From positions 1-36,842 of the forward strand of contig JAUCBJ010008922.1 in the NCBI GenBank assembly GCA_032718475.1: a stretch of DNA of 36,842 nucleotides, in the 5' to 3' direction. The stretch is from Nemertoderma westbladi. Lineage: Eukaryota; Animalia; Xenacoelomorpha. Shown one piece after another: positions 1-28,865 of the stretch. The first letter of the stretch is position 1, and each line of letters begins with the position of its first letter. The notes under the pieces were generated by a model. The model saw only the letters and a list, made by a program, of their open reading frames with translations, did no database searches and was not told the DNA's origin. The position numbers and the translations under genes are program-made.

Positions 1-703
1 AACAGTAAGAGTCTTTTTCTCTTTGGGGCGAGCCACTTTACTAGGAGGGCTATAACTCCTGGGTGAGGGGTGCAATACGATTGCATCTGAAGGTTTAGGA
101 TTACGGTCGGTGTATCCGCCGGTCGAGGTACCCGGTTGATCAACGTCAACATCGGTGGAACGAGGTCGAACAACCTTTTGAGCGCGTTTCAGGACAGCGG
201 CTCTTACTGGTCCCTGATGGGTCGTTTGCACGATTGCGATAGGTTGACTGTGTGTAGTGAGAAATTTCCTCGGTTTGATGGTTCTCTCTTTATTTGATCT
301 TTATTTGATGGTTCTGGCTTTATATTCATATGGTCATCGATGAACTTTTTGTAGCTCTGGATGCGAGTTTATGAACAAGTCACCGTATTCTGGATCTTGA
401 CGGATGAAAGTTGATCAAGTTATAGGAATTCAGGTTATTAGGATTAATATTCCTAAGATACTTGCGAACAAATTTAGTTGAAATATTCTCGCCAACACGC
501 TTCATCAGCTGGTAGCTAGGAGTGCGAGATTTTTGCTCGACGGAAGCAAAGAGATAGGGGTGAAACGCATAGACTCCTTCATAGGCACGTCCGGGATAGT
601 ATCGATGACGTGATTCGCAATCGAGATCTGTGTTAGCTTCTCAAGCTCTGATATAACGCAGGGCAACCATTTTGTCTACGCTTTTTAGATCTCAGTTGAA
701 AGG

Positions 704-901
704 GCAATCGAAACTTGCGTGTCCTTTAAACTGACAATGATGACATTGAGTCATAAATTGAGGACAGACTGCGAAGATGTGTAGATTATTGAGTCTACAA
801 TACGCACAATAAATCTCCATAGCAGGTTGATCTTTAAAGTAGGAGCAGGGTACGCTGGAGACCACCGGGGTAAAGTGATCTCGTGATGCACATAATCGGC
901 A
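704..901 (-). other. Three tandem Cys/His zinc-knuckle motifs in the extra ORF
   Basis: CRLCASRDH-x9-C, CAYCRLNNLHIFAVC (Cx2Cx5Hx4C) and CHHCQFKGHASFDC (canonical Cx2Cx4Hx4C). Confidence 0.85.
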
Positions 902-1409
902 ACGTTTCCTAGAAACATAATTGGCATGCCGATAATCGTATGCTGTGAAACATTGTGGACCTTGATACCATTCCAGCACATAATCATTGTCGCTGCTCCT
1001 GGGCGCTGTGGGTTGAATCTCCTCAGACTCCAATCAAATTGGTTCTTCTTCCAATTGCATAGCTGAGGTAGGTGCAGCAGTTTCCTCAAGTGAACCCACT
1101 GTTTGAACTTCTACAATAGAATAACCTGTGGGAATTTGGGGTCTTTGTATGACAGATGAATGTAGGTTCTGTATTCAAACGTCCTTAAAAATGGCGAATC
1201 CAGCGCTGTCCAACTTCTCAGCAGCTGAGTCTCTTAAGCTGAGCTTGGTCAAAGCGCGGTCCTTGAACTGACTATCAACGTTGCGGAACGGAGTCAGAAA
1301 GCGCCTAAAGCATTCGAATCGGATGAAATTATTGTGTTCATCTAGCTTGGCGAGTTTGGTTCCAAGCAGTAAGGGATGAGCGCGTATAGTGCGAGTGCAC
1401 ACATCGGCT

Positions 1410-2130
1410 AGCCAACCGGCAAGTGCGGCGTTCTCGAAGATAGTGTATATAGCTAATGAGGGATGGAGTGGAACACTCATAAAGCTATAGACGACGCCAG
1501 GTACGGTTAATGGTCCGTCAAAATATAATCGAGAATAATGATCTCCATATATTTGTTGGTAACTGACAGGGTTTCCAACTTTGAAATTCCATCCATATTC
1601 TTGGAAGGCAAGATGTCCGATAGAGGTTCATTGTACTTTATTGATTCCGCTTGATGTATTGGCATACATAGTTCGGAAGAAACCTCGGCCTTCTGCCCAT
1701 GGTGCAATCAGCTGGGTGTCTACGAAAGGATATGGGATATTCTCCATGTTTCTGAAGTCATTTTGGAGATCTCCATAAACAGCTTTTAAACTTAAACTTT
1801 TAAACCGATTTTAAGGAATCTCTCGTCAAACAGCATCTCGAGCACTGGCTGGGATAGCATAGATCCATCTATACCCATGGCCGGTTTGCGCTCGGTATCG
1901 GTAACATAACGCTGCGCGAGTTTGAATTGTCCATGTCGGAGTTTCTTTTGTATCTCGGTGAGAGTCTCAAAAGAATCGATCATGTCGGAACACGCTCGAG
2001 TAAACACATGTGTAGAACCAGCTAGTCCTCATATGTGTATCATTCGCATAGTTCCCAGTTCTCCAACCGGCACGCTACCTTCGTTATCGTAAGTGACAAC
2101 TCCATACATTTCGATAACGTTAAGAGTTTC
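1410..2130 (-). other. DEDDy (DnaQ-superfamily; WRN/EXD/Mut-7/RNase D-like) 3'-5' exonuclease-like domain in the extra ORF
   Basis: ExoI-like GVVTYDNEGS (D at 2088-2086, E at 2082-2080). ExoII region LEMLFDERFLKIGLKV-[frameshift]-LKAVYGDL, then FVDTQLIA and SIGHLAFQEYGWNFK. ExoIII-like PLHPSLAIYTIFE has E in place of the usual D. Motif order and spacing match the family; recognised by eye only. Confidence 0.65.
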
Positions 2131-4399
2131 GTTCCACTCTTTGGTAGTGTTTTCTATGGTCATACCCACTGTATGCCATAAGGTTGCGTGTTCGCTTGCG
2201 TTAGGTAAATCGCTATACTTCAGATAATGTGTAGTATAAGTCTCTGCATCTCCATATCGCTGTATTCTCTCTTCCTCGAATAATACGTCGAGATTCCAAT
2301 GGACTAATCGAGTTTTAATAAATCCATCGAGATTATACGGAGGTATTATGTCCTTTTCTATTCTTGAAACATTATAAGGTTTTCTGAATGAGTTTACTTT
2401 AACCAATTGATCTGAATGTTTCTGTAGTTGTTCGAGTTCAACAAGATCAAGGGGGTTTATCAATGGTAGAAACTTTAAACTGTGCGTAGGATCTTCCGGT
2501 TTCACCATATAATATTGAGTCAGATTGACATAATAAGGGTGATCTTTGATCCCATAAAATGAGTTTGGTAAAGGTCTAGCGCGTAGGTTGACCTCGTATA
2601 CCATACAACGGACAAGATCCGCTCGATTGTCCGGAGGTTCAACGAGTATACCGTCGACACGAGCGGCCTCGATTGGCGGACGTTGTAACATAGGAGTGTC
2701 AGCGATAAGATATCTAGATCTTAAGTTGATATCAACCGGTTGGGGTTGTACCGTGGCGAAGAGTTTGTCTCCGAAATGGGGAACCATCGAAGGATGAATG
2801 ATGGTTTTGGAATAGAGATCAGTCATAAGAATTTGAGCTTCTGGCTGGGCTAAAGCTGCTTCCTCTCTCTCATCCATTTCGATGTGCTTCTCCTCGAGCT
2901 GATTTTCCTCCGCTTGTCGTTGGAAGCATTCGTCCAAGAACTCTTGTAGAGAGTACGTTCGTCCAAGTTCGATATCTTCTTCGAGATTCTGGATTTCCCG
3001 ATCGAACTGGGGTAAAGCCAATTCTTTTACCGCTTGGACTTGTTGTTGCAATTTACGTTTGTCTAAACAATCGTAGGTTCCCTTTCCGATCTTTTGTCGA
3101 ATAGCGTCTAACAAGTTTCATACAATGCTCTCCTCCACCTCGGTGACAGGTTGTATAGGGGTAAAACCGGGATGATTATACAGGTTGAACGGTGATATTA
3201 GCTGTCCGCGTCCCAATCCGGCTAGGTAGGATGGGCGAATATCTAGAGAGCCCACAACCGGAGTGCCACCGACTAATTGTTCGGGTAACACTAGATCTTT
3301 GAACAATGAGTAGAGTTCAGGAGGATCCGTCATACTATTAGGATCAAGAGTCTGAGGTCTCACCAGAGAATGAGGAGGTCTGACCGAGTATTCCGGAACT
3401 CTGATCATAGGTTTATTTAAGGATCGTTTGAGTCAAGCGAGCATAGGTGATACGTCGAATAAGTTACGCTCAAAACTCCCGTAAGTATAGCGAGTAAAAC
3501 TGTGTTTAGCGCAACGTCTCCGCGGATTTTTATGTCTTTCCGTTTGTTGATTGGGTCTAGGGCATTCATCGCAGTAATGCCAAAGACGCACGTCTTGTAA
3601 GGGGAACGCTGGTGATCTTTCTCCAGTTTTACAATATTCCTCCATCTGTTCGAAGCTATCCGGTACAACAGGTAGCGGTCGATCGGCGGTAAGATACATC
3701 ATAGTAACATAGAGTCGTTTGAGTTCTATCATAGGGTTATGATGTATACCTTGAGGATATCGAGTTTCTAGATTTTGTTGACTGGCTACATTGAGATAAG
3801 TTTCTCTCAAGAATTCCAAATATTCGTTGAAGTCACTGCGTTTATCCGGCTCTTCAACATCTTCTCTTTCGAGTCGGTTTCGTATAGAATTTTCATGTTC
3901 GATTCTCAGTTTATCATTCCGACTCCGCTGGGTATGATATTTAAATAGGATCATTTCTCTTTCTGTATCTACATCGTCCATGTCGTGTAAGTAAATCGAT
4001 AGGATGACCAGTAGTTAAGAAGTCAATATACGTACCATTACGATGCGTATAGCGAGCGGTGAATTTCCGATAGTCCAATTCACGCTTGTGCTGTTCTTTT
4101 GACATTGGCGGTTCGATATAATGGCCATCATCTTCCGTAGTATGTTGACTAGCGTCGCTGCTTATTAAACTATCAACAAATGCTTGCAGTGGTAGTGTAT
4201 ATCGCTCCATGATACCAAGATCATCTTCTATCAACTCAGTCATAGCTGCTATATGAGTTTATTGATATTAGAGTTAATAATAATCAGGCTAGCAGTCGTC
4301 GCTGCCTCCCCCTCAGTGCCCCCGGACAGCGCAAGATCCTCAGCGCTGATGTACTGTCGTCTCTGTGCCTCTCGCCAATGTAGTAGCTACACAACGACA

Positions 4400-5830
4400 A
4401 CAACAACCAGCGCGAGTCACTCCACTGTCCATCCCAAGGGCTTAGATATACTGGAGGTACTTGCTACATAGGCGGGGTAACTTTCACAACTGCGACTCGC
4501 TACTGTAAACACACTTTAGTAGTAACATTTACCTATAAATACACAAATTCCACATTCCTGTCACAATTTGTACAAATTAGGGCCATTTGTCCGTTAGTCA
4601 AATGCCTTCCAGAATGCCACGTTATTATTATGTATCCCTGGATACTAGCAAGGTGCTATTTATTCCGCATGCTATTCAATAGGGCAAGCTTTCTATTGTT
4701 CCTTTAACTCGCTTCTAATTCTAGCGTGGTTGTTACTATGGTGACATTATGGAAAGCTAGCGGTAGAATTAGAGTAATTCTCATGCATTCAGATCTGGGA
4801 TGCTATTTAATAGTGATTCTTTAATTGTCAATATTCCCCTTATACATGATTTTATGAATTTTATCGGCTATTGACTGTACACTGGAGATTCTCTCACACT
4901 AATATACTTAATAGGGTGAATCTCCGCTCCCATGATCTATTAAGTAATGGAATTTTGGGAATGTTTATAAATTGTATAAAATGACAATTTATCAAATTCA
5001 TGAGAGGATATGAATTTAAAATTTATTCCCGTGAATTTTATTATTTGTTATTAAATAGACACAATTTTATTCCAGAACATGTCTGGGGACTAGGATCCTT
5101 AATTCCAGAAATTTGTCTTTTAAGAGTATCGGTAAGTACTACGATATCTTAATTGACTAGAATTTTAGAGGATCGAAAATTTTAACATATTTGATTTATA
5201 GATTTTCTGGAGTTAATTTGTTAGTTTTGTTAATTTGTTATTTCCTCTATTTTAACATTTGTTATAACAAACGTTATAAATATTTATTAAATATTTAATA
5301 TTTAAGATGGGCACCGATTTATTCCAGAACATGTCTGGGGACGTTAACCACTGATTCTAGAATTTTGTCTTTCAAGTATATCGGTGGGTGCCGCGATATC
5401 TTAATTGACTAGAATTTCAGATGGTCAAAGGGTTTAACAGATTTATTTGAAGATTTATTAACAGATTTGTTTGATAACATTATTAATATTAATAATATTT
5501 GTTAATATTTTGAGCTTCAACGCTACTGTTAAATGGACATCATTCTACTATATATATTATTTAAGATACGGTATGAGAGCAATATTGCAAGAAGCAATGT
5601 CAGTGAGAAAAGGCAAGTCGTTTCCAAGGTCTACCCAGAGCTTGGTTTAGCCGAGACACGAGAATCTGAACTTTGCATTCCTGATACTCTACTTACCAAT
5701 AATACTTGAGTATAGTAGGGGCGGTATATTGTACTTTTAATAAGTACAGACATTTCATCTTACTGTAGTCACGTATTTATAGTATGATACGGACAGTAAG
5801 GAAAGAGAAAATGAATTATTTCTCGCCGTT
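4400..5830. other. Hairpin-dense non-coding spacer between integrase and the extra ORF
   Basis: Many inverted repeats: TCTAATTCTA/TAGAATTAGA (4714-4773), GGAGATTC/GAATCTCC (4884-4925), CAATAG/CTATTG (4677-4698), GTATCC/GGATAC, TAGCA/TGCTA, nested AATTGTCA..ATATTCCCC / GGGGAATGT..TGACAATT (~4823-4989) and CTTACTGT/ACAGTAAG (~5759-5799). Confidence 0.65.
5066..5460. repeat. Diverged two-copy direct repeat (period ~252 bp), each copy carrying the same hairpins
   Basis: TTTATTCCAGAACATGTCTGGGGAC at ~5066 and ~5318, followed in both copies by ...TATCGG...CGATATCTTAATTGACTAGAATTT. Confidence 0.85.
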
Positions 5831-6030
5831 AAACGAAATATATTATACTAAGTAATTAAGTAATAAAACACGAATATATTGCACTAATCTACTGAATAAT
5901 CGTTAAAATATTATTCTACTAAATAAAATTAAAGAAAACGATTATAATAATAAAATTATATAATAATGCATACATAAATATAAAAATAAAAAAATAAAAT
6001 AATGTAGTCACACACCTACTCCAAACACTG

Positions 6031-7902
6031 TTACGTTGGGGAATCCCTAGAAGTTTGTTGGATTAGGGAGGTGGTCGTGGGAAGAGTCTCTTGCCTTCCA
6101 TAGTTACCGGACAACTCTCGGTCTCTTTCCAGTAAACATAAACGACCAACTGGGCGATAAAGTTGTTGTGTTTCGAATACAAATCCAGGTTTCTTAAAGC
6201 TACGTCGCATGACAACGAGTTCTACCGATCGTACTAAACCATCATATGAGATATGAGTCTCGATGATACGAACTGTCTGCCACCTCTTACGTGGAAGATA
6301 TGATTCCACGATAAGGACCATGTCTCCGGCGCTGACGTTTTCTTGCTGCGCAAACCACTTTGTTTGAAGTTGTAGCGTAGGAAGATAATGTTTTTGGAAA
6401 TGGTCAGCGAAACGACGGGATAATAACTGCATAAGTCGCCAAGTTTGTCGGCAGTATTCGTCTCCGTCTGTGATTTCCGATTGCGGGAGCATGGCTACAG
6501 GTTTCTTTAGTAGGAAATGCGCGGGTGTTAGCGCTTCTAGGGAGTCGGGGCTCGATGAGACTGGCATAAGCGGTCTCTCGTTAAGATAGGCGGCGATTTC
6601 TTCCATTAACGTCCACAAAAGTTCGTCGGTGAGATACGCGCGGCACGGCACTATAAAGTGAAATGCGGTCTTCACGCTTCGTATTAGTCTCTCCCAACTT
6701 CCTCCCCACCAAGGGGCGTCGGCGGCGTTGAAGGTCCAGCTAGATGCTGTTACCCTTAGATGATCGTCCACCTGTCTTTGGTTCCAATCTTTTACGTAAG
6801 CTTTGATCTCATTATTGGCGCCAATGAAGTTTGTTCCTTTGTCAGATCTCATAGTGTTGCTAGTCCCAAAACGAGCGATCTGTCGGCGTAAACTCAGTAT
6901 GAAGCTGTTGGTAGATAGATCGTTCACCATATCTAGATGGATCGCTCTACAAGTCATACAGACAAAGATGACACACCATCGCTTGACTATAGTCCTAGCA
7001 CGGCATACTTCAATAGGGCCAAATAAATCCATACCAGTATTAGTAAAGGGTGGTTCATAACAGCTTACTCGTTCCCAAGGTAATTCTGCCTCTCGCTGTG
7101 TTAAAGGCCTACTAAATGCTTTCCTATAAGGTATACAGTTCCTAAGAACTTGGTTCAGAGCTCTACGGGGCTTGTGGAAATAATAGCGAGTTCGAATTTC
7201 GCTAAGAACTCGTTCTCTACCAGCATGGTAAAGCCTACTGTGAACATCTACAATCATCTTGATTTGTAATTCAAGATTTCTAATGAGTATGGGAAACTTA
7301 GTGTCAAAGGACAATGGAGCATTGGTTAATCTCCCTCCGACACGTATTAACCCATCTATCATTGTACTAGAGAATCGATCCCTTAAGCGCATCTGTGGAT
7401 TTCTCAACAACAGGAAATACTTATCGGAATCTTCGTAACATTGCAGGAGTCTCAGTATCTGCTTATTGGTATCATCATGTTCTTGGTAACTGATCTTCTC
7501 AGTCAGAAACCTATCAGACACTCTATAAGTGGGAAGGTTTTTAATAGCATGGACCCTTTCAGATACTATTGGAGCGGTATCACTAGCGATTTTCATCCTG
7601 GAATAGTGATGATGGAAACACCTTTTCAGATACACAACGGCCTTGCAAAGCCGATTCCAGGAGCTATAATGATCTATTGCTCTTTGTAGGAGAGGGGAGA
7701 GTCCTTGCGAGACGTCTGGTGTTCCAGATTTCCAGTCTCTTTCCCTGATTTCTATAACAGATTTATTCATATTTCTTGTAACATCCGTGGGTGTATTTAA
7801 ATCCACAGCGTCGTCACCGGAGGTGTGTAGTACAGACAGATCTATCACGGGTTTAAATAACTTTGATTTACTCGTCCGGGTTTTAGGTTTGACTTTCTCC
7901 AC
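6031..7902 (-). pseudogene. BEL/Pao pol: integrase (HHCC zinc finger, DDE core, C-terminal domain)
   Basis: GLIRVGGRL, HSRLYHAG...CIPY (second Cys changed to Tyr), TGMDLFGP, RSDKGTNF, WERLIRSVK, LNERPL, LTPAHFL, GDMVLI. Confidence 0.95.
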
Positions 7903-7929
7903 TCCCTTGGCTTGTCTAATCTCCGCCGA

Positions 7930-8460
7930 GATGAGGGGGCCATTCCTCCTCTTCTTTACTCAGGAAGTCGGGTCCACCTAACCAGTCTGGAGTATCTATC
8001 AATTCTTGAGGAGTTGCTCCTCTGGAAGCGATGTCAGCTGGATTAATCGTCCCAAGGCAAAGTCTCCATTGATCCGTATTAGAGCAACTGAGTATAATGG
8101 CTACTCTGTTGGTAATGAAGATGCTGAAATGACAGACTTATTTGTTATATACTCCAGAACGAGTAAAGCATCAGTCCAATAGACAGTTTTCTTCAGTGGA
8201 TAGTCGATCTGTTCTGTTACATTCTGGCCGATGGCTGTAGCGTATATTATATATATATATAATATATATATAGCCTTTAACTCGTAGTTTGTTGTTTATT
8301 AGGGCCTTAGAGGCGACTAATGAAACTTTAATTCCATCCAGAGTTTCAACCCTCAGGTAGGCTACTATACCGATTCCCATATCGCTGGCGTCTCCAAACA
8401 CATGGAGTTGATAGGAATATGTGGGGAGAACGTGACCAAAATATGAGCGGGAAATCTTAT
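7930..8460 (-). pseudogene. BEL/Pao pol: RNase H region, frameshifted
   Basis: LHVFGDASDMGIGIVAYLR and LVASKA. Other frames give YWTDALLVLEYI, FITNRVAII, NPADIASRG (~8020-8046) and WLGGPDFL...WP. Confidence 0.92.
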
Positions 8461-9570
8461 AAAGTTCTCGATGGATGGTAGAGAATCTTCCCATTTCATC
8501 CACTTCCTTAGCAGTTCTCCCTTGAGTGGATCATCCCACGAGTGGTTTTCGAGCCACATTTGTTGTACTAAGCTCCGAGCAACTAATATGACTGGGCTAA
8601 TAAATCCCAATGGATCGAAATAAGTGCTCAGGATACTTAGACAAATCCGTTTAGTTCTAACTGGATTATCTCGTTGTTTTAACTGAAAGAATAAGATATC
8701 TCTCTCCGTGTCCCATTTTAATCCAAGAGTCTTGGTTTCTGGAAGATCGTCTTTAATGCGGTCCAGGTCTTTAACACCGCGGTCTTCTGCTGGTATCGAT
8801 TCCAGGAACTCACGGGAGTTGCTAGTGAATTTGGTTAGGCGAAATCCACCTCGTCGTAAGCACTCAACCATTCCCTTGGCAACATTTATTGCTTCTTCCA
8901 CCGATGGAAGGGACTTTAAATTGTCGTCTATGTAAATATCCCGTTTGATGTTGTCGATAACCGCTTTAGAGAAGGCGTCTCGGTTGTCATCGGCAGTGGT
9001 ACGCACTACCGAACAAGCGTTCGAGGGGCTCGAGATGATCCCGAAAGCCTGGATTGTCATCCAGTACTCTACTGGTTTTCGGTTGAGGTCTCCTTCAGGC
9101 CACCACAGAAATTGTAGGCTGTCTCGATCCCTATCCAATGCTTTGACTTGTAGGAACATGCCTTCGATGTCCGAAGCGAACGCGATCGAATATTGCCACA
9201 GTCTTAGTAATATTCCCAACAAAGATTGGAGTAAGTTGGGTCCCGGCAACAGTTCGGAATTCAGGGATTGGCCCATGTAAAGGGCGGAGCCGTCAAACAC
9301 TACCCGGACTTCGTTTGGTTTACCGGGATTGGGAACGTAATGATGTGTCAGATAATACGTTCTCTCCATTACGGGTGTTTCTTCCGGAACTCGCTCCGCG
9401 TATCCATTATCTATAAATTTCTTCAGTTGGGTTTTATACATTTCCCTGGCTTGAACGTTAGTCGTCAAACGCCGATGTAATTGTGTGATTCTTTTTTCCG
9501 CTAAAGGTCGGTTATTTACGAAGCTGGGTTCTCGCCGTCAGAATGGAAGACCAATCTCATAGCGACCTTC
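8440..9570 (-). pseudogene. BEL/Pao pol: reverse transcriptase
   Basis: GRYEIGLPF*RREP..NNRPLAEKR, YYLTHHYV, RVVFDGSA, SLNSELLPGPNL, DIEGMFLQV, FGIISSP, YIDD (8923-8934), GGFRLTKFTSNS, KTLGLKWD, FDPLGFISP. Confidence 0.95.
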
Positions 9571-10290
9571 ATCCTTCAGATAACGTGTGGTCGTTTCCTG
9601 AATCTGCTTGGCTCTCTCTTCTTCGACAGATAAAGCTTTGTCGTAGGAATTAGGCTCTACGGCTTTTTGAGTAAAGAATCGTACGGTGTGTTCATCGCGT
9701 AGTTTGTTATTATATCGATCTACTACTTCGTTTAATTCATCATTGTACTTCAATGGTTCGCTATGTTGGTTGATAAGGTTACATAGGTTGACTTGGTTTA
9801 ACCAAGTTTGAGTCTCAGTGAGGAGATCAATGGTATTTTCCTCGTCATATAGGTTGCTTATGCCATCATTATCTGAGGAGTATGGACTTTCCTCAGTTGG
9901 AATTTCTTCTTCACTTATATCTTCCTCCCATTCACTCACCTGGTGGACTCGTTGACTTGGGAGTCTTTCTAGTAAGGTCATATGGGAAGGTCCAGTGAAG
10001 TACCAACCTACTCTCATTCTTCCCGCATACATCTGGAGTGGTTGCGGTCGAGCTGGCCGTTTTTCTAATGTCTCAAGCGCCTCGTGCGCATTTTGGCCGA
10101 GTAAAATCTGCACCCCTGGATAATCCGTACTAAATCTAGGTATGTTGCATTGCTGGGTAAAATGATCTTCATCCCAGTTGTAAGGCTCCACTTGGCTAGT
10201 AGCAAAGTTCTTTATCGTCACCATATATTACACTATTTTCTCCTAGTTCATCCTGGGGAGTGGACAACGCACCCACGTAGTAATCTGTGG

Positions 10291-10520
10291 TTACTGTGGA
10301 TTTCCAATAACATGCATAATTCCGGAAAGGTTCAGTTTGGTTCGGAACATTGGTTGACCAGCAAAGATATCTTCGGCTAGGTCTTTGTCGATAAAGGTGC
10401 CTGTACTGCCGGAGTCAAGGAGGGCATTTACTATTAAGCCCCTCCCTATTCCATGCACCCTCAGTTGCACCACCGGGAATTCTCGGATACCGACAGATGA
10501 AGTTGGCGCTTTCCAAGAGG
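10291..10520 (-). pseudogene. Retroviral-type aspartic protease
   Basis: FPVVQLRV...VNALLDSGSTGTFIDKDLA, with the catalytic Asp codon at 10416-10414. Confidence 0.9.
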
Positions 10521-10752
10521 GCTGTCGATCCGGAATAGACAGTCGAGGATCTTCTCCGTCTGTTTCAGTCTCATACGTAAGCGCTCGATACACAGTTGTG
10601 TTGATCATATAACAAGATTCATTTTCGTCTGAGAATTCGTCTGTGTAGAATCCTTCCATCTCCGAACTGTGGTCAGTGACGTTCACATCACTGAATTGGA
10701 CATGTAGTTCGGGTTCACTCACCTGACTCGTACGGGTCCTGTCAAATTCTGT

Positions 10753-13059
10753 ATGCAGCAAGATATGATGTTTCGCGCCGCACTTAGCACACTTCGCATC
10801 TGAGTAACAGGATTTCCCGGATTATGATCAGATCTGTATGGGATATCATTATCAACAGGCTTATAATTACCCTTAATAGGGTTTACTATAGGAGTTTCTA
10901 CTTCGCTAGCAGTATAGATGCGTGTAGGCTCCACACCTTGCGCATGAAATACTTCAGACCTAACGGGCTGACACATTGTTACAGGGGGTGGTGGTATACC
11001 CATTTGTATATTTACTAATTTATCGCGCTCTAGAGCGATACTTTGTTGTACTTCTTGCAGTTCTAACCTACTCTCTCTTACTGTTCCCTTTAACAGTTGA
11101 ACAGTCCCTTCCAATTCTCGGACTTGCTCGGAAGATTTGATTTTATTACCTTCCAGCTGTCTGAGCAACTGCTCCATCCCCCGCCGTGCTTCATCCATCC
11201 ACTCAACCGCGGAGTCGGGAGTTGCCAACGTAGTAGCTGGATGGCGCATCGGGATGACGGGAGACAATTTGTTTATAATGTCTTGCTCGGCATCCAGGAC
11301 TGTTTGGGATTCCGGCAATTGTCTACTGGGCACAGGTAGTTTTCTACTGTGCAAAGGGAACTTAGAGCTAGGTTCTTGAAGCAAAGGGGTCTCTAAAAAG
11401 GGAGTGGCTTCACTAACAGGCCTAATTATTTCGGGCTCATCTACTATAGTTGGGAGTCTTTCTACTCTAATAATTTGGTCTGTAGGTTCTTGATTACTTG
11501 AGTCTACATTAGCTAGTTGCCTTCTCACCGCAGGAGGCAAATTAGGTAACTTCTGCTGGTGTGGCGCTCTTCTACGTCCCCTTGAACGAGATTTATTACC
11601 TTTACCCTCGGGATCCATTGTATCACCTTCATCAGAGGAGGTAAATCCCTGTCTTCGGGGAGTAGATCGACTCAGTAGCTGCATCTGAGTAAGCTACTCT
11701 TTGTTTATTTAAGTAATCTTGTTTCGCCTGAAGGTTCTCCAACTCTAGTTGGGCTGTCGCTTCAGATGCCCTCCGTTCTGCTTCTGCCACTGCCGCTGCT
11801 GCTGCCTCCTTTCTTTCAGATTCTGCCACTGCCGCTGCCGCTTTTCTTTCAGCTTCTGCCGCTGCCGCCGCTGCTGCTAACCTTTGGTTTTCTATTTGCT
11901 TTTTCTTTATTTGTTCTTCTTGGTCCATTGCGATGAGGATGCTTTCATCAAATTTAGCCTGCTCTGCAGCTAATATTTCCGCATCTAAAGAATCCAACAC
12001 GAATTTGGCTCCCTCACTATTAGGGTGAAGTCCAGCTAGCCGTCTCCTTAGCTCTTTGTCACCTATAAATCGTTGATAATCCGACAGATAGATGTCAATA
12101 GCATCCTTCTTCTGAGGTTTTTCGGATTTCGCTTCGCCTTCCACATGAGAAAAGGTGGCCTCTGTTGATTCTCCGTGGGTTATGCACTCAGTTAGCTGAA
12201 CCTTCCATTGTGTCGTTCCCTGGACCTTAACATTCACTCGTTGGAACAAAGTCTTTACAGCCACTTGCAACGATGTGTCTTGGCTTCTCTTCGAGGCTTC
12301 CTCAAAGGATGAAAGGATTAATCTGATCCGCAAGATGCGTTCTCTCACTTGATAAAGCAGCTCTCCCTGCTCTTGAGGTCCTTGTGGTTGTTGAAATAAA
12401 TGTTCTTTCAGTCGTTCCAAGGAATTGAAGAATCCCTGGACATATCCTGCTCCTGACCTCTTCCATACAGCTGGATCTCGAGTGTCCCTTACTATCCCCA
12501 TTCGGTATAAGTCTTCCCAGGCAGCTTCTGATAAGTTAAATGGGAGTCCAGGTCCAGGGAAGTTCTATTGCATCTCTACAATAGACCTTAGTTCTTCCAT
12601 CGTGTATCCCGCATAACTGTCCCTGGTCGATCTCTTATTTCTCATCCAATCAGCTTGATGTTCCTCCACAGCTATCAATACTCTAGTGAGTACGGCCCCA
12701 GGAAGAATTAGAAGTGGATCTGGATAAACCGCTTCTTCCATCCTTGCTCCAATCTCGGGCGTTAACTCTTCAGTGTCGGAACTAGAGTTATTCTGCCGTT
12801 GAGAAATAAGTTCTCGGTTCGGGTGCTGTTGTTGTTTAACAGCCGTCTCTTGGTCTCGCTTAACTTGAGCCCTAGTGCCTATAATAGACCTATGGTGCTT
12901 TACTAGCCTAGGGTCTGATACCACTACTTTAGGGATAACCTTTCTCACAGTAGGAGGGGACTTAGACTTCGGTCTGAGATGTTCTATACTTTGATCTGGG
13001 TCACCGATCGTTCTTTCTAGGAGACTATCTGACAGTGTTTGCTTTATGTCAGACATCAT
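10753..13059 (-). pseudogene. gag-like region (coiled-coil, Ala/Glu-rich N-terminus); capsid core apparently deleted, last zinc knuckle retained
   Basis: ORFs 13059-12565 and 12501-11632 are in frame across one TAG, then shift into 11684-10719. CAKCGAKHHILLH (10791-10753) is in frame with the protease ORF. Confidence 0.8.
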
Positions 13060-14687
13060 TTATTTTACAGTTGAATGCCTACTACTATAATGACAGTTAA
13101 AGCAAGTCTAGGGGAAATCAGTATCAACTGTCAGCCTAGTAGTTACCGATATTACTTACCGATATTGCTTACTGTAAATACCGGTATTGTCAATTATTTA
13201 ATAATAACTGATTTTCTGAATTTTAGGGGTTACCTCCCTTTACTTTATTACTGATATTAAGCAGTAGTTCAACTGATATTAAGACCTTATTGATGTATAA
13301 CAGGCTTACTGATTTATAAATCTGATTGAGTTGATTTATAAATATATATATATATACCCGTAATGGGTTTTGACAATATTTGAAATAAATGTTATTATTT
13401 CTGGATAAGAAATCACTACACAGAAGCTGAACGCTCTCAGTGGAGTGCTACTTGTTATACACTAATACGGATAATTCTACTTAACTAAGGTACTTATCAC
13501 TACAAATTACTTACGAATCGGGTTGAGATTACACAATCTAAATAAACAATAAACAAGTTATACGTACAATTTTTTAGGGTAATTTAACAAGAAATCTACG
13601 AACCAGACTAACAAGGAGTTAGAATTTCTGGTTCTTACAAACTGACAGGAAATTATGGTAGTTGAAACCAATAAAGTAGTAGTAAGTAAGTTGCGTTGTC
13701 CAGATAAGGAAATACCACCATCTGACGACGTATAGTCTTAAACTATAAGTACTACGTTATGTACCTGGAGTGTCCTATACCTAGAGGTTAATTATCGAAG
13801 CCAACCAGAGCTAACGGACCTATTAACCACATTACAACACAAGTATACTGCCTACACACTAAATTACTTTCGGAAAGCACTGTACTCTAAACCCTAAATT
13901 AGGTACAAGTACTTATACAACAAATAACCAGCAGTTAAATATACGTGAACAGCCAAAAGAACCACGGTATCTGCTGGAGTGACCGGAGCACAAAATCACC
14001 AGTCTTTACCTACGCCAAGCAGCCCTGATGTAGTACCGTGGTTAATTTAACTATAATGGTATGTATAACAAGCACAATTACTGTAGGAATAAACTTGGGG
14101 AGTTGGAGGTTGCGAATACTCGCATAAACTCTGAATAATAAATATTACGCTACCCGCACAGACAATTCAAATAAAACACAGACCAAATGCTGGCAGACTA
14201 TTGTCAAGCCTAAATAAACTACAGTATATGCAAACTCCGAAATGGTTAGTTAGTAGGCATTCTAACCAAGTAGTACGGCTTATTATTTCGTAGAGGATTT
14301 ACCTTACAGCACTGGATGTCTCCACCTTCCTAACTAGCACTTTATCGGACAGACACTCTACATACACTGCAATCGCCTCAGACCTAACAACAGTTAGACA
14401 ACAATCCGGCCTACAAATTATTTATACAATCTGAGCAGGCTTACACGCCTTCTGCTCAATATTACACTTACGGATAAATAAAACTGACAGAAATAAGTAA
14501 AATCCCAATAAAAACCAGGGCTGCAGTCCCCGATTAAATATTAAGACCTAGCAGTATAGAATTATCGCAATCGAAATAATACTGCTGTACCTGTAAGTAC
14601 CGGTTCGGATCAGGCCTACAGTTTACCGTCCTACCAGTACATTCGACTTTATTGCCTACTGCGCAATAAAGAACCAAAATCTATTAA
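13060..14687 (-). other. Long (~1.6 kb) 5' leader of the BEL/Pao element
   Basis: No long ORF between the LTR end and the gag ATG. It contains short repeats (TTACCGATATT / ACTGATATTAAG, ~13140-13340) and stems such as ACCACGGTA/TACCGTGGT (13961-14042), AGCAGTAT/ATACTGCT and CTTTATTGC/GCAATAAAG (14647-14671). Confidence 0.65.
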
Positions 14688-15070
14688 TGTTCGCGCTTTC
14701 AGACCTTTAGCAGTTTAACCTGCCAATTTTAATTGTCCTCTTGTTTATAAATCGACTTTAGGCCTTACCAATTACCTTGTGTACTGAAGTTACATCTGCC
14801 GAAGCCAGTCCGTGCCCGGCGTATGACCCACGGTGTGGGAGACTGGATTCGGGTTCCTTGGGAAGTATTGCAGTGTAGAACTACTCTGTATTATTCGATT
14901 GATCACTACTATATAATCTCTGACAACTATATTTACTTTCGGGGAAATATTAACAGTTCCTTTAGGACGTGGCGCTTTAAGTATAAAAACAGAGTTATGA
15001 CTTATACTAATCACAACTAGATGGCCACAGAGTTTTGTAAATAGCGCATTCTTTAGGAGATGCTTTATTA

Positions 15071-15132
15071 ACCTTCACACTACTTCACACGACTTCACAC
15101 TACTTCACACTACTTTACACTACTTCACACTA
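15071..15132. repeat. 10-bp tandem repeat (TACTTCACAC) x~6 inside the LTR
   Basis: Directly visible; absent from the LTR copy at 25200-26174. Confidence 0.9.
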
Positions 15133-15603
15133 ATTTGCCGACCGTCACTGAATTTGATCATATATAAGGAGGATTGCAACTGACACACATAGGGATTATG
15201 AAATAGCATTTAATTCACACAAAACCACTATAATTTAAGTCGCAGTTGCTACCGGTATACTCTTTTCCTCTTACCTCAGTAATCAATAAGATTGAGGGGT
15301 TTATGATTATTTATCGGTATTCTCCAAATATAACATCCATTAATATAACAAGAATTAATACTATATAAAACAGAAGTAAAATAGTGCAGTGATTCAGTGA
15401 TTCAGTTGTATGAAATGAGTTAAGTTAATAGATTTACATTCCTATAACCAAGGCCATCAGATGTTCCCGGGCCAAAGTCTGAAACTTCCGTACAGAAGCA
15501 CAGAATTCTGAGCTGAATCTAATTCTCAGAAAAATAATAACCATCATGCATTGCGCGAGTTTCTCAGGTAGGTCTCTGTTAGCTGTAAAGTGAAAATCGC
15601 TCC

Positions 15604-15613
15604 GATTGGCTGA
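15604..15613 (-). promoter_or_regulatory. CCAAT (NF-Y-like) box in the presumed U3
   Basis: TCAGCCAATC on the minus strand; GATTGG is conserved in all three LTR copies (15604, 16110, 26057). Confidence 0.5.
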
Positions 15614-15869
15614 ATAAGACAGAACAAAGAAACCTCCACGTCCACAGAGAATCAGCTGATAGATTTCGTCATCCCGGCTCTAATTCCTTTCCGACGCGTA
15701 GTTGAATAATTTTAGGGCTATTTTAGAGTATTCTGCGCATTGCGTAAAAATGACTTGTTATGTCCACAAAAGCTTTTACAAGACTGCTCTGGGTATTACG
15801 TTGCCACGAGTTAGGGCGAGATCTTTCTAACGAGATATAGTTAGCGAGATTTCATCGAGATTAGAGAAG

Positions 15870-16284
15870 TGCGGTGAAATGAGTATGCGATGAAATCAGA
15901 AGTCAGTTTGTGTCGTGTGATACGAAATGTGCAATGCCATGTTAATAGATTTGCGTTCTTATGACTCTCTTAGGCCACTGATAATAGGGCAAAGTCAGAA
16001 CAGTCAGAACATCAGAATGAATGAATTCTGAATGAAGGAATTCGCAGAATTTTGCCGCATTGCGTCATTTCTTATAGGCCACTGAGCACAGGGGAAGGGA
16101 AATCGCTCTGATTGGCTGAATATGTCAACAACAAAGCAGATTCTTCACACAAAGAAACAGCTGGTAGATTTTGTCATCCCAGCTCTGAGTTTTTGACAGA
16201 CACGTAGTTGCATAAGCCATAGGCCTTTTAGAGTATTTAGCGCATTGCTCAAAATGACTTATTTTGTCCACAAAAGTTTTTACA
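15870..16284 (-). repeat. Partial, diverged LTR (U3-side portion) of a related family directly upstream of the 5' LTR
   Basis: 15941-16284 aligns by eye with 15424-15780 (GTTAATAGATTT, GATTGGCTGAATA, GTCATCCC, GCGCATTGC, GTCCACAAAAG.TTTTACA). The left boundary is approximate. Confidence 0.75.
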
Positions 16285-16339
16285 GTAATGCCTCGGCAAC
16301 CAAATTTGGATACATACACTCATGAGCATGTGGACGACT

Positions 16340-16932
16340 TCTGTTATTCCGACTTGTAAATGGTTGTTATAAAGGTATTTTTAAGAAAATGGTCGATAAA
16401 ATTATAGATTCAAAAGATCATCCGTTGCATAAATCGTTGTTAGCACATACCTCTAGAAATGCCTCAACTAGGAACAATTTTGCCATATCTTACTGTCGTA
16501 CTCACAATTATAGAAACTCTTTTATACCAACTGCACTGCGTTTTTTGAACAAGCCGGAAACTTTACAATATTTGTAGTAACAATATTGGTATTACATCTT
16601 TTCGGCCACAGTACCGTGTTTTACTTTGATTATCTTTTTTTTTAGAAAATACCGTTTTCATTTTTTTTCATTTTTTTATTTGACTAGTATAATTCTAATT
16701 TTTGTAATATCTGCATCATTATATGAACTCATTTCCTGCCATATATAGTGTTTATATATCGGCCTTATATGAACTGTCCCAACTTGATGAATATTATAGT
16801 ACTTAATGATTGGTTCGATTTTAGCTCTTAAAGTGTGCATATTTTAATTAACATTTTGAAATTTTTAATCGATCACGGTAATAGAACTTAATCTACATAG
16901 CGTATTTTATAATCACATACATAAATAAATAA
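16340..16932 (+). mobile_element. 5'-truncated LINE 3' end (Rex1/Babar-like ORF2 C-terminus plus 3' UTR)
   Basis: KIIDSKDHPLH...CRTHNYRNSFIPTALRFLN, then a T-rich UTR ending in ATAAATAAATAA. Confidence 0.7.
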
Positions 16933-16934
16933 TT

Positions 16935-17470
16935 ACCTGGGATCGTGGATTCGGAAGTCAGATAGGACCTCCGAATAAGTAATGGAAAGACATGGGCAGC
17001 TTGAATGGGTTTTTCAGCATAAGTCATACAGAATACGTCGGAAAATTAAGAACCGATTATTTAGAGCAGCAGTAGTTCCAGTACTCCTCTATGGGTGTCC
17101 ATGCTGGGCTCTAACTGCTTCGGACACCAATTGTCTGGGTGGCACATTCACAAGAATGCTGCGTCGGGTTCACTGTGTCAAGTACAATGCACACATCTCC
17201 AACCAGACACTATATAATATTGGAGGTGTCTCACTGGTTCCCCTAAAGTTGACACTTGAGCAAAGCCGCCTCCGCTTTGCAGGACATTGTTTTCGCCGTG
17301 AGGACCACCCTGTGCACAATCTTGTGCTTTGGCAGCCCCATGGAGAAAATAAGCATGGTGGACAGCCCATGACTTTCTTGAGATGCCTTTTAAAGGACAG
17401 TTGAAGATGCGGATAATCTCTCGAAAGTCATGGGGGATAGGGAGTTGTGGTGGTGAAACATAGATAATAA
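16935..17470 (+). mobile_element. RTE-like LINE fragment (region C-terminal to RT)
   Basis: KNRLFRAAVVPVLLYGCPCWALT, TRMLRRV, HISN..LY, RLRFAGHCFR, LVLWQP. Confidence 0.8.
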
Positions 17471-17631
17471 GCCGGCATAGTTGAGTTTACTAGGCGAATC
17501 TGCCCCCCCCCCCCCCCCCCCCCATCTCTATAGACTTGCAGTGTATTAATACTGTAGTAGGCCTAGCGTACCGTACAGCACTTAAACTTGGATTTATTGG
17601 TTTAATTTTTTGGTTTGGTTAGGGTTATTGT

Positions 17632-18745: not shown

Positions 18746-20035
18746 TTAGGGAGTCCTGTGTTTCATATAGAAAATATAGATAAGGAAGCTCAAAATAAAT
18801 GGAATACCAAACAAGCTAACTATGGAAGTTGCAACAGAAAATCCATATAAATCGTTGAAGGCACCTCCGATTACTGGTCCGCTAATGTGACCAAAAACGT
18901 AAGCTGCACGACTTCCCACCTGTAGCGTTGTGCAAGTGTTTACATCGTCGGACATAGCCAGCCTGCTTTGCACGCCAATACTGGAAGTTGTTGTTAAACC
19001 CAGCGCAATACCTAAAAGAATACAGCCGATAATTGAAAGAATAAAGCTCGCCTGTTGGTTGGAGGTGAGTTGTAGCAAAGGTGAAGGCCCAACAAGGATC
19101 ATACCCAGAATAAGAGCACAGTAACCGCTTACAGCGATAGGAGTTGGATTGAAATGGGGAAAGCGTTGCATTAGAGAGCTAAGTATTAACCCTATGGGAG
19201 TAGCTGTTATTGGGTCAATTAGGAATATGCCTCCAATGGCAACTTGACTCGATTTATAAGCTGCAAACAGATGAGATGCATACGCAACGCCAAAGAAACG
19301 GTAGCATTGACCAAGGTGAACCTGTAAGAAGCCGATTGATAAAATGCCCACATTTTTGTAGACGCCAAACCCATTGTTGCTCCCTCTGGCGACAGCGCTT
19401 TCGATGTTATGGGGAGACTCAATTAGGCAATAGATGGTGGATAAAGCGAGAAGAGACGCAAATATTAAAAACGGTGCCTCGAAACCAAAAGTACTGTACA
19501 TCACTGAACCGAAAATCGGTGCGATCATTCCAGCCACCGAGCCCATGATAAGGGAGAACCCGGCAAAAAACACTCTATGTCCCGGGAATAATTCCATTAT
19601 CAGACTGTAGGTGTAGATTAAAGTGACTGTAACTCCGAAACTGTTTATACTCCGTAGGATAAAACAGACGACAATGTAGACGACGTTGTTGGTTATAAGG
19701 TCGACAAGACTGAATCCAGCAATCCCCAAGATGCCGCCGAAACTGCAAACGCCGTATACGAACAAGGAACTCCATCGAGGTATTCGCATTGATAGTAATA
19801 GAAATACTAACAACATGGTGATTGAGTACGTAGAGGAGAGGGCGCCAATAAGAGTTCGAGACCATCCTCGTTGTTCTCTTACCACGATTGGGAAGAATGT
19901 ATCGGGTAGGTAGAGACACATAGCAGGTATACCTTGGTAAATGCTCAGTAAGATACCCAAGACTATTTTCCGTTTAGTGCAATTGGATTGGGTATCAGCA
20001 GGTAGGACTACGCGTTCATACGTTGTTTCAACCAT
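18746..20035 (-). CDS. Major facilitator superfamily transporter, SLC18B1/vesicular amine transporter-like, intronless (~429 aa from ATG at 20035)
   Basis: Uninterrupted ORF with ~12 hydrophobic segments in a 6+6 arrangement. Motifs FFP, MELFP, G.AGMIAPIFGSVMYSTFGFEAPF, LVGPSPLL and GPVIGGAFNDLYGF are typical of SLC18B1-like proteins. Confidence 0.85.
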   Translation of the reverse strand: MVETTYERVVLPADTQSNCTKRKIVLGILLSIYQGIPAMCLYLPDTFFPIVVREQRGWSRTLIGALSSTYSITMLLVFLLLSMRIPRWSSLFVYGVCSFGGILGIAGFSLVDLITNNVVYIVVCFILRSINSFGVTVTLIYTYSLIMELFPGHRVFFAGFSLIMGSVAGMIAPIFGSVMYSTFGFEAPFLIFASLLALSTIYCLIESPHNIESAVARGSNNGFGVYKNVGILSIGFLQVHLGQCYRFFGVAYASHLFAAYKSSQVAIGGIFLIDPITATPIGLILSSLMQRFPHFNPTPIAVSGYCALILGMILVGPSPLLQLTSNQQASFILSIIGCILLGIALGLTTTSSIGVQSRLAMSDDVNTCTTLQVGSRAAYVFGHISGPVIGGAFNDLYGFSVATSIVSLFGIPFILSFLIYIFYMKHRTP

Positions 20036-20106
20036 GATGGTCAAAAGGTTTAGTAAATCCTCTTAAAAGTCTTGTAAATCATGAAAACAATTATACAAAA
20101 ACAATT

Positions 20107-27504: not shown

Positions 27505-27897
27505 GTATAACAGTACAGTATATGAAACCAAGGTCCTAGAATGTCTGCAGTTTTAGAGGAAAATAAGTCAGCTGTTATATTCCCCATCATCGTATTTGAA
27601 GTTGGGGAAAATTTCGTAAAAGAAAATTAATTGCTTTTGTTTCACTAACATCCACATATTTGTAGGAAAAATTGATTATTTTTAAATAAAACTAATTTTA
27701 GTTTATGGTTTATAAATATGTACGTTATGGAACTGTTGGTCACTGAACTGTGTGTGTGTGTACCCGTGACAACTATTTCACATTAATTTGTACTAGTACT
27801 AGTAGCTACTGTATAGAGCGAACTTTAAATTTGTATTGTAATGATAAGCGTAACATAAATATTGTACAGTAGTGAAACAGTATTGTACAGTGTAAAC

Positions 27898-28865
27898 GAT
27901 GTGCCGACAGTGTCGGCGTTACGTTGTGCCGAGAGTGTCGGCGTTACGTTGTGCCGACAGTGTCGGCGTTACGTTGTGCCGACAGTGTGCAGATAATGTG
28001 CTGAGTGTCGGTACATTATGCCAACAGCGTCGGCGTTACGTTGTTCCGACAGTGTCGGCGTTACGTTGTGCCGACAGTGTCGGCGTTACGTTGTGCTGAC
28101 AGTGTCGACGTTACGTTGTGCCGACAGTGTTGGCGTTACGTTGTGCTGACAGTGTCGACGTTACGTTGTGCCGACAGTGTCGGCGTTACGTTGTGCCGAC
28201 AGTGTGCAGATAATGTGCTGAGTGTCGGTACATTATGCCAACAGCGTCGGCGTTACGTTGTTCCGACAGTGTCGGCGTTACGATGTGCCGACAGTGTCGA
28301 CGTTACGTTGTGCTGACAGTGTCGACGTTACGTTGTGCCGACAGTGTTGGCGTTACATTATGCCAACAGTGTCAGCGTTACGTTGTGCCGACAGTGTCGA
28401 CGTTACGTTGTGCCGATAGTGTCGACGTTACGTTGTGCCGACAGTGTCGGCGTTACGTTGTGCCGACAGTGTGCAGATAATGTGCTGAGTGTCGGTACAT
28501 TATGCCAACAGCGTCGGCGTTACGTTGTTCCGACAGTGTCGGCGTTACGTTGTGCCGACAGTGTCGGCGTTACGTTGTGCCGACAGTGTCGACGTTACGT
28601 TGTGCCGACAGTGTTGGCGTTACATTATGCCAACAGTGTCAGCGTTACGTTGTGCCGACAGTGTCGACGTTACGTTGTGCCGACAGTGTCGGCGTTACGT
28701 TGTGTCGATAGTGTCGACGTTACGTTGTGCCGACAGTGTCGGCGTTACGTTGTGCCGACTGTGTCGGCGTTACGTTGTGCCGACAGTGTCGGCGTTACGT
28801 TTGTGCCGACAGTGGCGGCGTTATGTTGTATCGACAGTGTTGGCGTTGTGTTGTGCCGACAGTGT
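27898..28865. repeat. 25-bp palindromic satellite (TGTGCCGACAGTGTCGGCGTTACGT) with higher-order repeats
   Basis: Tandem array in which each unit holds GCCGACA-G-TGTCGGC. A variant block GTGTGCAGATAATGTGCTGAG recurs at ~27985, 28202 and 28469. Confidence 0.97.

Follow-up and report, generated by a model that had tools for sequence, protein, structure and literature searches.

A decayed BEL/Pao retrotransposon of Nemertoderma westbladi lies beside a selected third gene that probably encodes a DEDDy-like exonuclease with zinc knuckles

Results

Organization of the locus

The window analysed here is the whole 36,842-nucleotide stretch of contig JAUCBJ010008922.1 (assembly GCA_032718475.1) of Nemertoderma westbladi. 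Within it lie a BEL/Pao LTR retrotransposon copy, decayed and belonging to a highly repeated family, and an accessory reading frame, ORF3, with the following features.

1..4243, minus strand: ORF3, ~1,409 codons, open at the left edge of the window, with 10 stops and 3 frameshifts in this copy
4244..6030, no strand assigned: spacer between integrase and ORF3, 1.8 kb, AT-rich (33% GC), with no LTR match
6031..10821, minus strand: BEL/Pao pol, broken by stops and frameshifts
10822..13059, minus strand: ORF in the gag position, with a start codon near 13059
14659..14676, minus strand: PBS-like site starting with TGG, 12 nt inside the inner end of the LTR candidate
14688..16300, minus strand: 5' LTR candidate, its inner end placed where a second copy, at 25200, begins to match, its outer end uncertain

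The first-pass annotation had assigned pol to BEL/Pao, and both the PR-RT-RH-IN order and the BEL/Pao-specific domains DUF5641 (E 4.7e-18) and Peptidase_A17 (E 3.7e-15) bear this out. A third Gag knuckle and the protease (10821-10300) precede RT (YIDD at 8934), Peptidase_A17/RNase H, integrase and DUF5641, and the top matches of pol are all BEL/Pao-type polyproteins at ~31-41% identity. The capsid core and the first two Gag knuckles were not detected in this copy. When a 565-position Gag profile built from relatives was applied, only the third knuckle and the protease matched while positions 1-375 did not, and the capsid part of Gag has likely been deleted here. The 5' LTR candidate is up to ~1.6 kb long. 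BEL/Pao elements have a PBS for tRNA-Arg or tRNA-Gly downstream of the 5' LTR, and the TGG-starting site is the candidate here. Another PBS candidate, at ~16304, was dropped, as an inner LTR end is better suited by the break in homology at 14688. The spacer contains a 140-nt duplication (5066/5318).

Reconstruction of the ORF3 frame

Read on the minus strand from 4243 to 1, ORF3 forms one frame joined from four pieces (4243-~4010, ~4000-1804, ~1790-392 and ~390-1), with X at the breaks. These breaks are in-frame stops at 3435, 3120, 2031, 1630, 1177, 1036, 694, 643, 336 and 303 and frameshifts near 4005, 1800 and 390. In each of the eight blocks examined, stops are rarest in the chosen frame, which has 0-2 where the two alternatives have 2-22; the lead is small in blocks 1174-695 (1 vs 2) and 390-1 (2 vs 3). 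Codon usage trained on gag-pol prefers it in seven of eight blocks, with block 691-392 tied (0.114 vs 0.126). Nine of the ten stops share one codon type, compared with 40% in the off-frames (p 0.002). ORF3 may naturally stop at 694, immediately past its final knuckle, and would then have ~1,180 codons. Thus, of the original proposal of a single frame of more than 1,400 codons, the rebuilt minus-strand frame stands, while a single ORF over the whole length is less certain, given that two of ten stops and one of three frameshifts were compared with other copies and that 694 may be the end.

The N-terminal ~700 residues (2150..4243, minus strand) matched no family or homologue in the family libraries and include an acidic, helical-looking stretch near 3000-2850. 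No 19-residue window of ORF3 exceeds a mean Kyte-Doolittle hydropathy of 1.24, which indicates that there is no transmembrane segment. This agrees with the earlier view that ORF3 is not env-like, and an env identity was ruled out on these grounds.

Linkage of ORF3 to pol

ORF3 had been described as lying on the pol strand, 1.8 kb downstream of integrase, with no intervening LTR. This arrangement was confirmed, and nothing in 1-6100 matches the 5' LTR candidate. Coverage of 1-15200 is continuous (30 of 30 bins in four of four runs), and the depth over ORF3 falls within the range of pol. The share of contigs that run on into unlike sequence is 0 in run X1, 0.01 in X3 and 0.17 in X5. The spacer's listed loose ends are short, with median lengths of 9-16 nt, and, judged by eye, look like sequence from the window itself; this test is a weak one, as the LTR end at 14688 is likewise missing among the 24 of 4,440 loose ends listed.

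It is very unlikely that ORF3 is instead carried by some other repeat that flanks or surrounds this BEL/Pao copy. Such an arrangement would fit the lack of a 3' LTR in the window, the 1.8-kb non-coding gap, and the finding of no contig that bridges pol and ORF3. Against it stand the shared strand, the unbroken cover over the spacer, the near absence of divergent contigs in X1 and X3, the nature of the listed spacer loose ends, and the fit of gag-pol codon usage to ORF3. ORF3 is likely, but not proven, to be part of the BEL/Pao element, because the 3' LTR lies outside the window.

Nuclease motifs and zinc knuckles

The four ExoI/II/III-like motifs and three Cys/His clusters that the first-pass annotation had quoted were all found in place in ORF3.

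2077..2150, minus strand: ExoI-like motif and the helix before it, with Asp 2088-2086 and Glu 2082-2080
1709..1833, minus strand: ExoII region, with strand motif 1833-1804, frameshift ~1805-1790, Asp 1771-1769 and DT motif 1720-1715
1433..1483, minus strand: ExoIII-like motif F-x3-P-L-x6-Y-x3-E, Tyr 1447-1445 and Glu 1435-1433 replacing Asp
704..901, minus strand: three Cys/His clusters, at 901-845, 808-764 and 745-704

The ExoI D-x-E, the ExoII Asp and the ExoIII Tyr of DEDDy proteins occur in ORF3 in that order. The spacing inside each motif block equals that of RNase D: the DT motif lies 17 residues past the ExoII Asp, the same distance as from D85 to D102, and the ExoIII block reproduces the spacing of W139, L144, Y151 and D155. 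Alignment to RNase D as a whole requires assuming two insertions of ~40-45 residues each. The ExoII Asp had been thought to fall exactly at the frameshift; this was incorrect, as BLASTP against E. coli RNase D places it at 1771-1769, intact and downstream of the frameshift.

The fourth acidic residue, Asp in the Y-x3-D of DEDDy proteins, is Glu in ORF3 (1435-1433), giving a DEDE set. This Glu is kept in other copies: the difference listed for its codon is synonymous. We therefore class ORF3 as DEDDy-like (DEDE) and not as canonical DEDDy. In addition, the residue 15 past the ExoI Glu is His in ORF3, a position that by eye is an invariant Gln in RNase D. Because of the Glu at the fourth acid and the His in place of Gln, the nuclease may be inactive.

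The knuckles lie ~177 residues beyond the nuclease part. The first cluster is atypical (C-x2-C-x4-H-x9-C), the second reads C-x2-C-x5-H-x4-C, and the third is a canonical CCHC. Searched against the PDB, they matched only two sequences at E≤10, both of them yeast Air2 (0.026 and 8.5). The possibility that they are displaced Gag knuckles was ruled out, as they do not match the Gag-core profile.

Selection on ORF3

ORF3 was compared with other copies of the family. In 1400-2150, 25 of the 40 differences listed (among 151) are synonymous, where 12.4±2.8 would be expected, a count matched in none of 5,000 simulations. Among the same 40 of 151, 24 fall at third positions (p 5e-4), and the five other frames give synonymous counts of 6-14. 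Four of the five listed differences are synonymous in the N-terminal stretch 2455-3604, and so are four of five within the ExoIII motif.

Two of the ten stops and one of the three frameshifts, all in the nuclease region, were compared with other copies. At stops 2031 and 1630, 98.6-100% of the depth is unlike this copy in four of four runs. Across the frameshift at 1790-1815, depth drops from 92,703 to 401 in run X1, from 116,947 to 684 in X2 and from 34,502 to 541 in X3. The checked breaks are thus private to this copy. Recoding of TGA was ruled out, since both TGA stops checked (2031 and 1630) differ in other copies. Together, the synonymous excess in the nuclease region and the private nature of the checked breaks show ORF3 to be a genuine gene on which purifying selection has acted.

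Tests of the DEDDy fold

Standard tools gave no significant support for a DEDDy domain. The Pfam/HMMER check that had been suggested returned no library match, with no DEDD match to ORF3 in Pfam, NCBIfam or PHROGs, none by phmmer against the PDB, and no HRDC or PMC2NT domain in the Pfam search. Local HMMER with DEDDy profiles gave E 0.015-0.08, and on the full length two of three profiles had no match. HHalign probabilities were 0.9% and 0.4%. Single-sequence fold models of two halves were too poor to use (pLDDT 30 and 39), and Foldseek with these models returned no row of 33 at E≤0.001. Homologues were likewise not found by phmmer of 692-1804 against 1.84 billion protein representatives (none at E≤0.001), by word search among proteins of 826-2355 aa (0 of 3,062 candidates), among 27 pattern matches in metagenome contigs and 3 in viral contigs, or in a metagenome scan pairing ORF3 with integrase (0 of 88).

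In favour of a DEDDy domain, the top BLASTP segment against RNase D covered ExoII and the DT motif (E 0.033). Custom glocal profiles gave p ~0.003-0.05, in a test that was devised after the motifs had been seen and in which insertions are cheap. A 28-sequence DEDDy profile scored 10.9 bits on the nuclease region, a score reached by none of 500 shuffles of the region, 352 BEL pol chunks or 360 six-frame chunks. On the full 1,409 residues, the scores of three glocal profiles were reached by 1, 5 and 16 of 300 shuffles, with the same ExoIII endpoint. Ungapped motif-block chain scores were not significant, being reached by 7-30 of 200 shuffles. In the ESM Atlas, the matches listed for the ExoI piece included a single Pfam family, PF01612 (score 0.86, 21% of members), and an 'RRP6-like' cluster came first for a longer piece (0.78), scores below 0.9 being leads only.

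One reading of these results is that ORF3 is a real, selected accessory gene of another fold, and that its DEDDy motifs are chance look-alikes. Non-significance in every standard tool and the absence of matches among the 1.84 billion representatives would fit this explanation. We consider it distinctly unlikely in view of the collinear blocks with RNase D spacing, the glocal and Atlas results, and the synonymous differences in the ExoIII motif. Judged from its sequence, the nuclease region probably has an RNase D/Rrp6-type (DEDDy) fold. Thus the proposal of a DEDDy exonuclease retains motif order, block spacing, the custom profiles and the ESM lead in its favour, while Pfam and HHalign were not significant and folding was uninformative.

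Discussion

The first-pass annotation mentioned DEDDy accessory ORFs in bdelloid rotifer retroelements, and this precedent is real. Bdelloid rotifer DEDDy ORF3s occur in gypsy-like (the LTR elements Juno and Vesta) and Penelope-like (Athena/Terminon) elements (PMC5408684; PMC6431247). Like ORF3 here, they are RNase D-like exonucleases encoded by a separate ORF that follows pol, replaces env and lacks a transmembrane segment, and the acidic set is altered in both, to DEED in rotifers and DEDE here. In contrast, the carrier here is BEL/Pao, and ORF3 is unlike its rotifer counterparts in having ~1,180-1,400 codons, three knuckles and a DEDE set. Purifying selection is demonstrated here, whereas in PMC5408684 only the env-like and GDSL ORFs were examined for variation, which was neutral. 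We found no exonuclease ORF in BEL/Pao in the openly available literature, and the main text of PMC3118150 does not contain the word 'exonuclease'.

The element shares the PR-RT-RH-IN pol order, Peptidase_A17 and DUF5641 with Belpaoviridae (PMC8742986). The profile of that family gives between one and three genes (gag, pol, env), a length of 4.2-10 kb and LTRs of 0.2-1.2 kb (PMC8742986). Here, if ORF3 lies inside the element, the span is at least 16.3 kb and the third gene is not env, and the LTR candidate reaches ~1.6 kb. The element would then fall outside the 4.2-10 kb, gag-pol-env range, which is descriptive; pol sets the family.

Other systems offer partial parallels. Trypanosoma brucei RNase D (TbRND; PMC7797062) likewise has a DEDD exonuclease followed by CCHC knuckles, and these knuckles bind the guide RNA being trimmed. 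TbRND differs in that it is a small mitochondrial enzyme of the cell whose four knuckles follow a linker of 28 residues, compared with ~177 residues here, and no sequence similarity between it and ORF3 was found. Rrp6 and Air2 of the exosome/TRAMP system share RNase D-type motifs and Air2-like knuckle spacing with ORF3, but are separate host proteins, and ORF3 has no HRDC or PMC2NT Pfam match. A collection aimed at Rrp6 yielded 33 DEDDy proteins, none of which bore that name. Dada DNA transposons also carry a DEDDy exonuclease which, unlike ORF3, sits inside the DDE transposase of a DNA transposon (PMC3706591).

The explanation that we tentatively prefer, at somewhat less than an even chance, is that the BEL/Pao copy lies beside a selected third gene, likely element-borne, whose product is a DEDDy 3'-5' exoribonuclease with knuckles that weakens silencing. 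ORF3 would have an mRNA of its own, either spliced or begun at an internal start, as for env, and its substrate would be RNA. Single-stranded RNA would be gripped by the knuckles and its 3' end passed to the catalytic centre, as happens in trypanosome RNase D; two metals would still be bound at the D-E-D-E site, with activity perhaps reduced. By trimming or destroying host small RNAs, ORF3 could weaken silencing of the element, with guide RNAs as the target being the most speculative step.

The same gene and fold might instead be catalytically weak or dead, and serve as an RNA-binding decoy that caps RNA 3' ends or occupies exosome/TRAMP partners, shielding a transcript of 16 kb or more from nuclear surveillance. 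The ExoIII Glu kept across copies is consistent with a decoy, as is the nearest match of the knuckles, Air2, a TRAMP subunit (PMC3384339). Furthermore, the inactive DEDD derivatives Maelstrom and EXD1 keep RNA binding (cited in PMC5408684). However, the domain keeps its Tyr and all but one of the four acids, a change from Asp to Glu is conservative, variation is also seen among rotifer ORF3s (DEED), and the Air2 match is weak (E 0.026) among knuckles that are generically alike. We regard a decoy as unlikely.

A little less probable still is an active exonuclease serving the element's own replication, by trimming genomic RNA or tRNA-primer ends or by proofreading cDNA, and favoured by a very long genome. 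The element's length, 16.3 kb or more where the family spans 4.2-10 kb, would suit such a role. The DEDDy group includes RNases and polymerase proofreading domains, and of the sets used in the block test that of phage polymerase exonucleases came out ahead (score reached by 7 of 200 shuffles), although this profile ranking mirrors the training sets chosen. A 3'-end processing role was proposed in PMC5408684. Yet ORF3 is separate, 1.8 kb past pol and unfused to RT, its packaging is without support, and other BEL/Pao elements replicate without it.

Returning to the silencing hypothesis, a bolder form would see a giant BEL/Pao lineage that has joined an Rrp6/RNase D-type exonuclease and Air2-like knuckles, within a single selected protein, into a small RNA-surveillance module, that uses it as a dedicated anti-silencing weapon, directed at small RNAs or at exosome/TRAMP, and that thereby reached very high copy number. 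We give this form only a small chance of being correct; if true, ORF3 would represent the first case of a BEL/Pao element encoding a suppressor of RNA defence.

Capture of a DEDDy ORF3 would be extended by this element to a third retroelement lineage, and BEL/Pao size would be pushed well beyond the 10 kb of the ICTV profile. Purifying selection is shown on a DEDDy-like ORF3-type gene, and RNA-binding knuckles are added to such an ORF3, suggesting its substrate class. Since the family is of high copy number, population-level and small-RNA tests are feasible. The finding bears on how animal LTR retrotransposons may counter piRNA/siRNA and exosome surveillance.

Results

An LTR retrotransposon occupies the minus strand of 1-16,300, and its pol matches DUF5641 (E 4.7e-18), Peptidase_A17 (3.7e-15) and Integrase_H2C2 in Pfam. 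Judged by homology, pol is of BEL/Pao type; the best 120 of 659 longer homologues were BEL/Pao-type polyproteins at about 29-41% identity. The copy is decayed: its pol contains stops and frameshifts, and neither the capsid nor the first two knuckles of Gag were detected.

Features of the element and its neighbourhood
14688, minus: inner end of the 5' LTR candidate, where homology with the second copy at 25200 starts, at TGTT
12 nt further in from 14688, minus: PBS-like TGG
15594-15780 and 16100-16284, inside the LTR candidate: segments 78% identical, 506 nt apart, with CCAAT-like boxes; a possible U3 enhancer duplication
13060-14687: leader between LTR candidate and gag, unusually long (1.6 kb), with high depth of cover
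10800-10830: gag-position ORF with hardly any gap to the third Gag knuckle and the protease; the missing parts are likely an internal deletion, which may be private to this copy or mark a non-autonomous subfamily
4244-4275, minus: AG dinucleotides shortly before the ORF3 start codon, themselves preceded by an AT-rich stretch; by eye, a candidate splice acceptor
1-24, minus: 13-nt purine run (24-12), 7 nt, then TGTT at the edge of the window; might represent a polypurine tract and the beginning of the 3' LTR, but oddly spaced and within the open frame
25200-~26110: diverged second LTR-like sequence, 69-86% identical in blocks, that starts at the same TGTT end as the 5' LTR candidate; probably a solo LTR from a related family
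16330-17490, plus: non-LTR retrotransposon fragment, by eye, without a Pfam match
18746-20062, minus: intronless host MFS transporter ORF (MFS_1, E 5.6e-18)
22973-23716, plus: non-LTR retrotransposon fragment; endonuclease Exo_endo_phos_2 (E 3.9e-5) at 22976-23716
20100-22200, 27850-28900 and 34630-36842: satellite arrays with repeat units of 15, 25 and 40 nt
33140-33970: foldback element, arms 91-96% complementary

The first-pass annotation had stitched scattered ORFs downstream of pol into one accessory frame, ORF3 (4243-1, minus strand), and this frame is real. Joined, its pieces give 1,409 residues, X marking 10 stops and three frameshifts. In all eight blocks the chosen frame had the fewest stops, and in seven its codon usage was also the closest to that of gag-pol. 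Nine of the 10 stops are the same codon (40% in off-frames), as expected if one recurrent mutational process made them after insertion. The natural end of ORF3 may lie at 694.

ORF3 has evolved under purifying selection. Four DNA sequencing runs publicly available for this organism gave 71,046, 47,889, 24,216 and 617 contigs matching 1-15200 and covered all 30 bins of that interval. Among the 40 differences listed, of 151, in the nuclease region (1400-2150), 25 were synonymous in the first-pass frame against 12.4 expected, and none of 5,000 simulations drawing on identical base changes reached 25; the other five frames gave 6-14. When differences across 1-15200 were classed, using 30 of 40 rows and omitting 10 in non-coding or frame-ambiguous places, 5/8 of those listed in ORF3 outside the nuclease region and 7/15 in gag-pol were synonymous. 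The stops at 2031 and 1630, the two checked of 10, were lacking from 98.6-100% of aligned depth, and depth over 1790-1815 dropped about 60- to 230-fold in the three deep runs, indicating that the frameshift there, the one checked of three, is private to this copy.

ORF3 and pol share a strand, and the 5' LTR candidate had no matches in 1-6100; hence no LTR separates them, as first proposed, and the 3' LTR lies outside the window. Cover was continuous across the pol-ORF3 spacer. Depth in run X1 over ORF3 (34,560-375,451) was in the range of that over pol (69,270-495,176). X1 and X2 come from one sample, and summed depths do not measure copy number. In the runs with a value, all but X2, contigs continuing into unlike sequence made up a share of 0 in X1, 0.01 in X3 and 0.17 in the shallow run X5. 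No contig in the public runs joined pol and ORF3, and the LTR end at 14688 was missing from the 24 loose ends listed of 4,440, which makes the loose-end test weak. Taken together, ORF3 very probably belongs to the BEL/Pao element, and its assignment to a neighbouring element is quite improbable.

The nuclease region had been read as a DEDDy 3'-5' exonuclease, and motif spacing and profile leads favour that reading. In BLASTP against E. coli RNase D, the best segment comprised ExoII and the DT motif (E 0.033). That alignment puts an intact ExoII Asp at 1771-1769, past the frameshift rather than at it as originally placed, and its distance to DT is 17, equal to RNase D. The ExoIII offsets +5, +12 and +16 equal those of RNase D W139/L144/Y151/D155, with Phe replacing Trp and Glu replacing Asp, giving a putative D-E-D-E active site. 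In a post hoc glocal test, a profile built from 28 DEDDy domains of phages and bacteria scored 10.9 bits, equalled by 0/500 shuffles and 0/352 BEL chunks; the top of 360 six-frame chunks was 5.4. When three profiles were run on the whole read-through, 1, 5 and 16 of 300 shuffles equalled their scores, as did 0, 6 and 7 of 120 BEL proteins, and all three alignments ended on this ExoIII. The ESM Atlas gave leads to PF01612 from the ExoI piece (0.86) and to an 'RRP6-like' cluster from a longer piece (0.78), both under its 0.9 line.

In contrast, ORF3 had no DEDD match in Pfam, NCBIfam, PHROGs or PDB sequences, local HMMER gave E 0.015-0.08 or no match, and HHalign with DEDDy gave a probability under 1%. 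The score of an ungapped block chain was equalled by 7-30 of 200 shuffles, although with all 53 sequences the chain fell on these motifs. The DEDDy alignment requires two insertions of 40-45 residues each, and predicted folds of the region were unusable as evidence. The domain is probably DEDDy-like; another fold is improbable.

The three zinc knuckles first noted about 170 codons after the nuclease motifs were recovered as three Cys/His clusters about 177 codons past ExoIII. Pfam zf-CCHC_3 matched them at E 9e-4, short of its cut-off, and among 177,635 PDB sequences the only two matches at E<=10 were both to yeast Air2, a TRAMP protein (0.026 and 8.5), a resemblance that is suggestive only. 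A somewhat unlikely alternative is that ORF3 acts as an inactive RNA-binding decoy against the exosome/TRAMP.

Discussion

DEDDy exonucleases have been described in other mobile elements. For rotifers, PMC5408684 reports DEDDy ORF3s of undemonstrated activity, carried by Juno, Vesta and the Athena/Terminon elements, and tests variation only in env-like and GDSL ORFs; two further sources describe Terminons with DEDDy ORFs (PMC6431247) and Dada transposons as further carriers (PMC3706591). BEL/Pao elements have one to three genes and span 4.2-10 kb according to the ICTV profile (PMC8742986). We found no exonuclease ORF in BEL/Pao in the literature searched, which includes PMC3118150 and excludes subscription papers, Repbase and supplements. 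A search with the C-terminal 371 residues of ORF3 against 1.84 billion representatives gave no homologue at E<=0.001.

Trypanosome RNase D likewise pairs a DEDD nuclease with CCHC fingers, a combination that its authors describe as very unusual; there the fingers bind the RNA under trimming (PMC7797062). For ORF3 itself, the frame, its selection and its motifs are observed directly; the fold, the route of expression, the substrate and the target are inferred. ORF3 might instead process or proofread the element's own nucleic acids, which we consider rather unlikely. Our tentative preference is for an RNA-directed 3'-5' exonuclease, produced from its own mRNA in the manner of an env gene, whose knuckles would grip single-stranded RNA and whose selected role would be the trimming or destruction of small guide RNAs made by the host.
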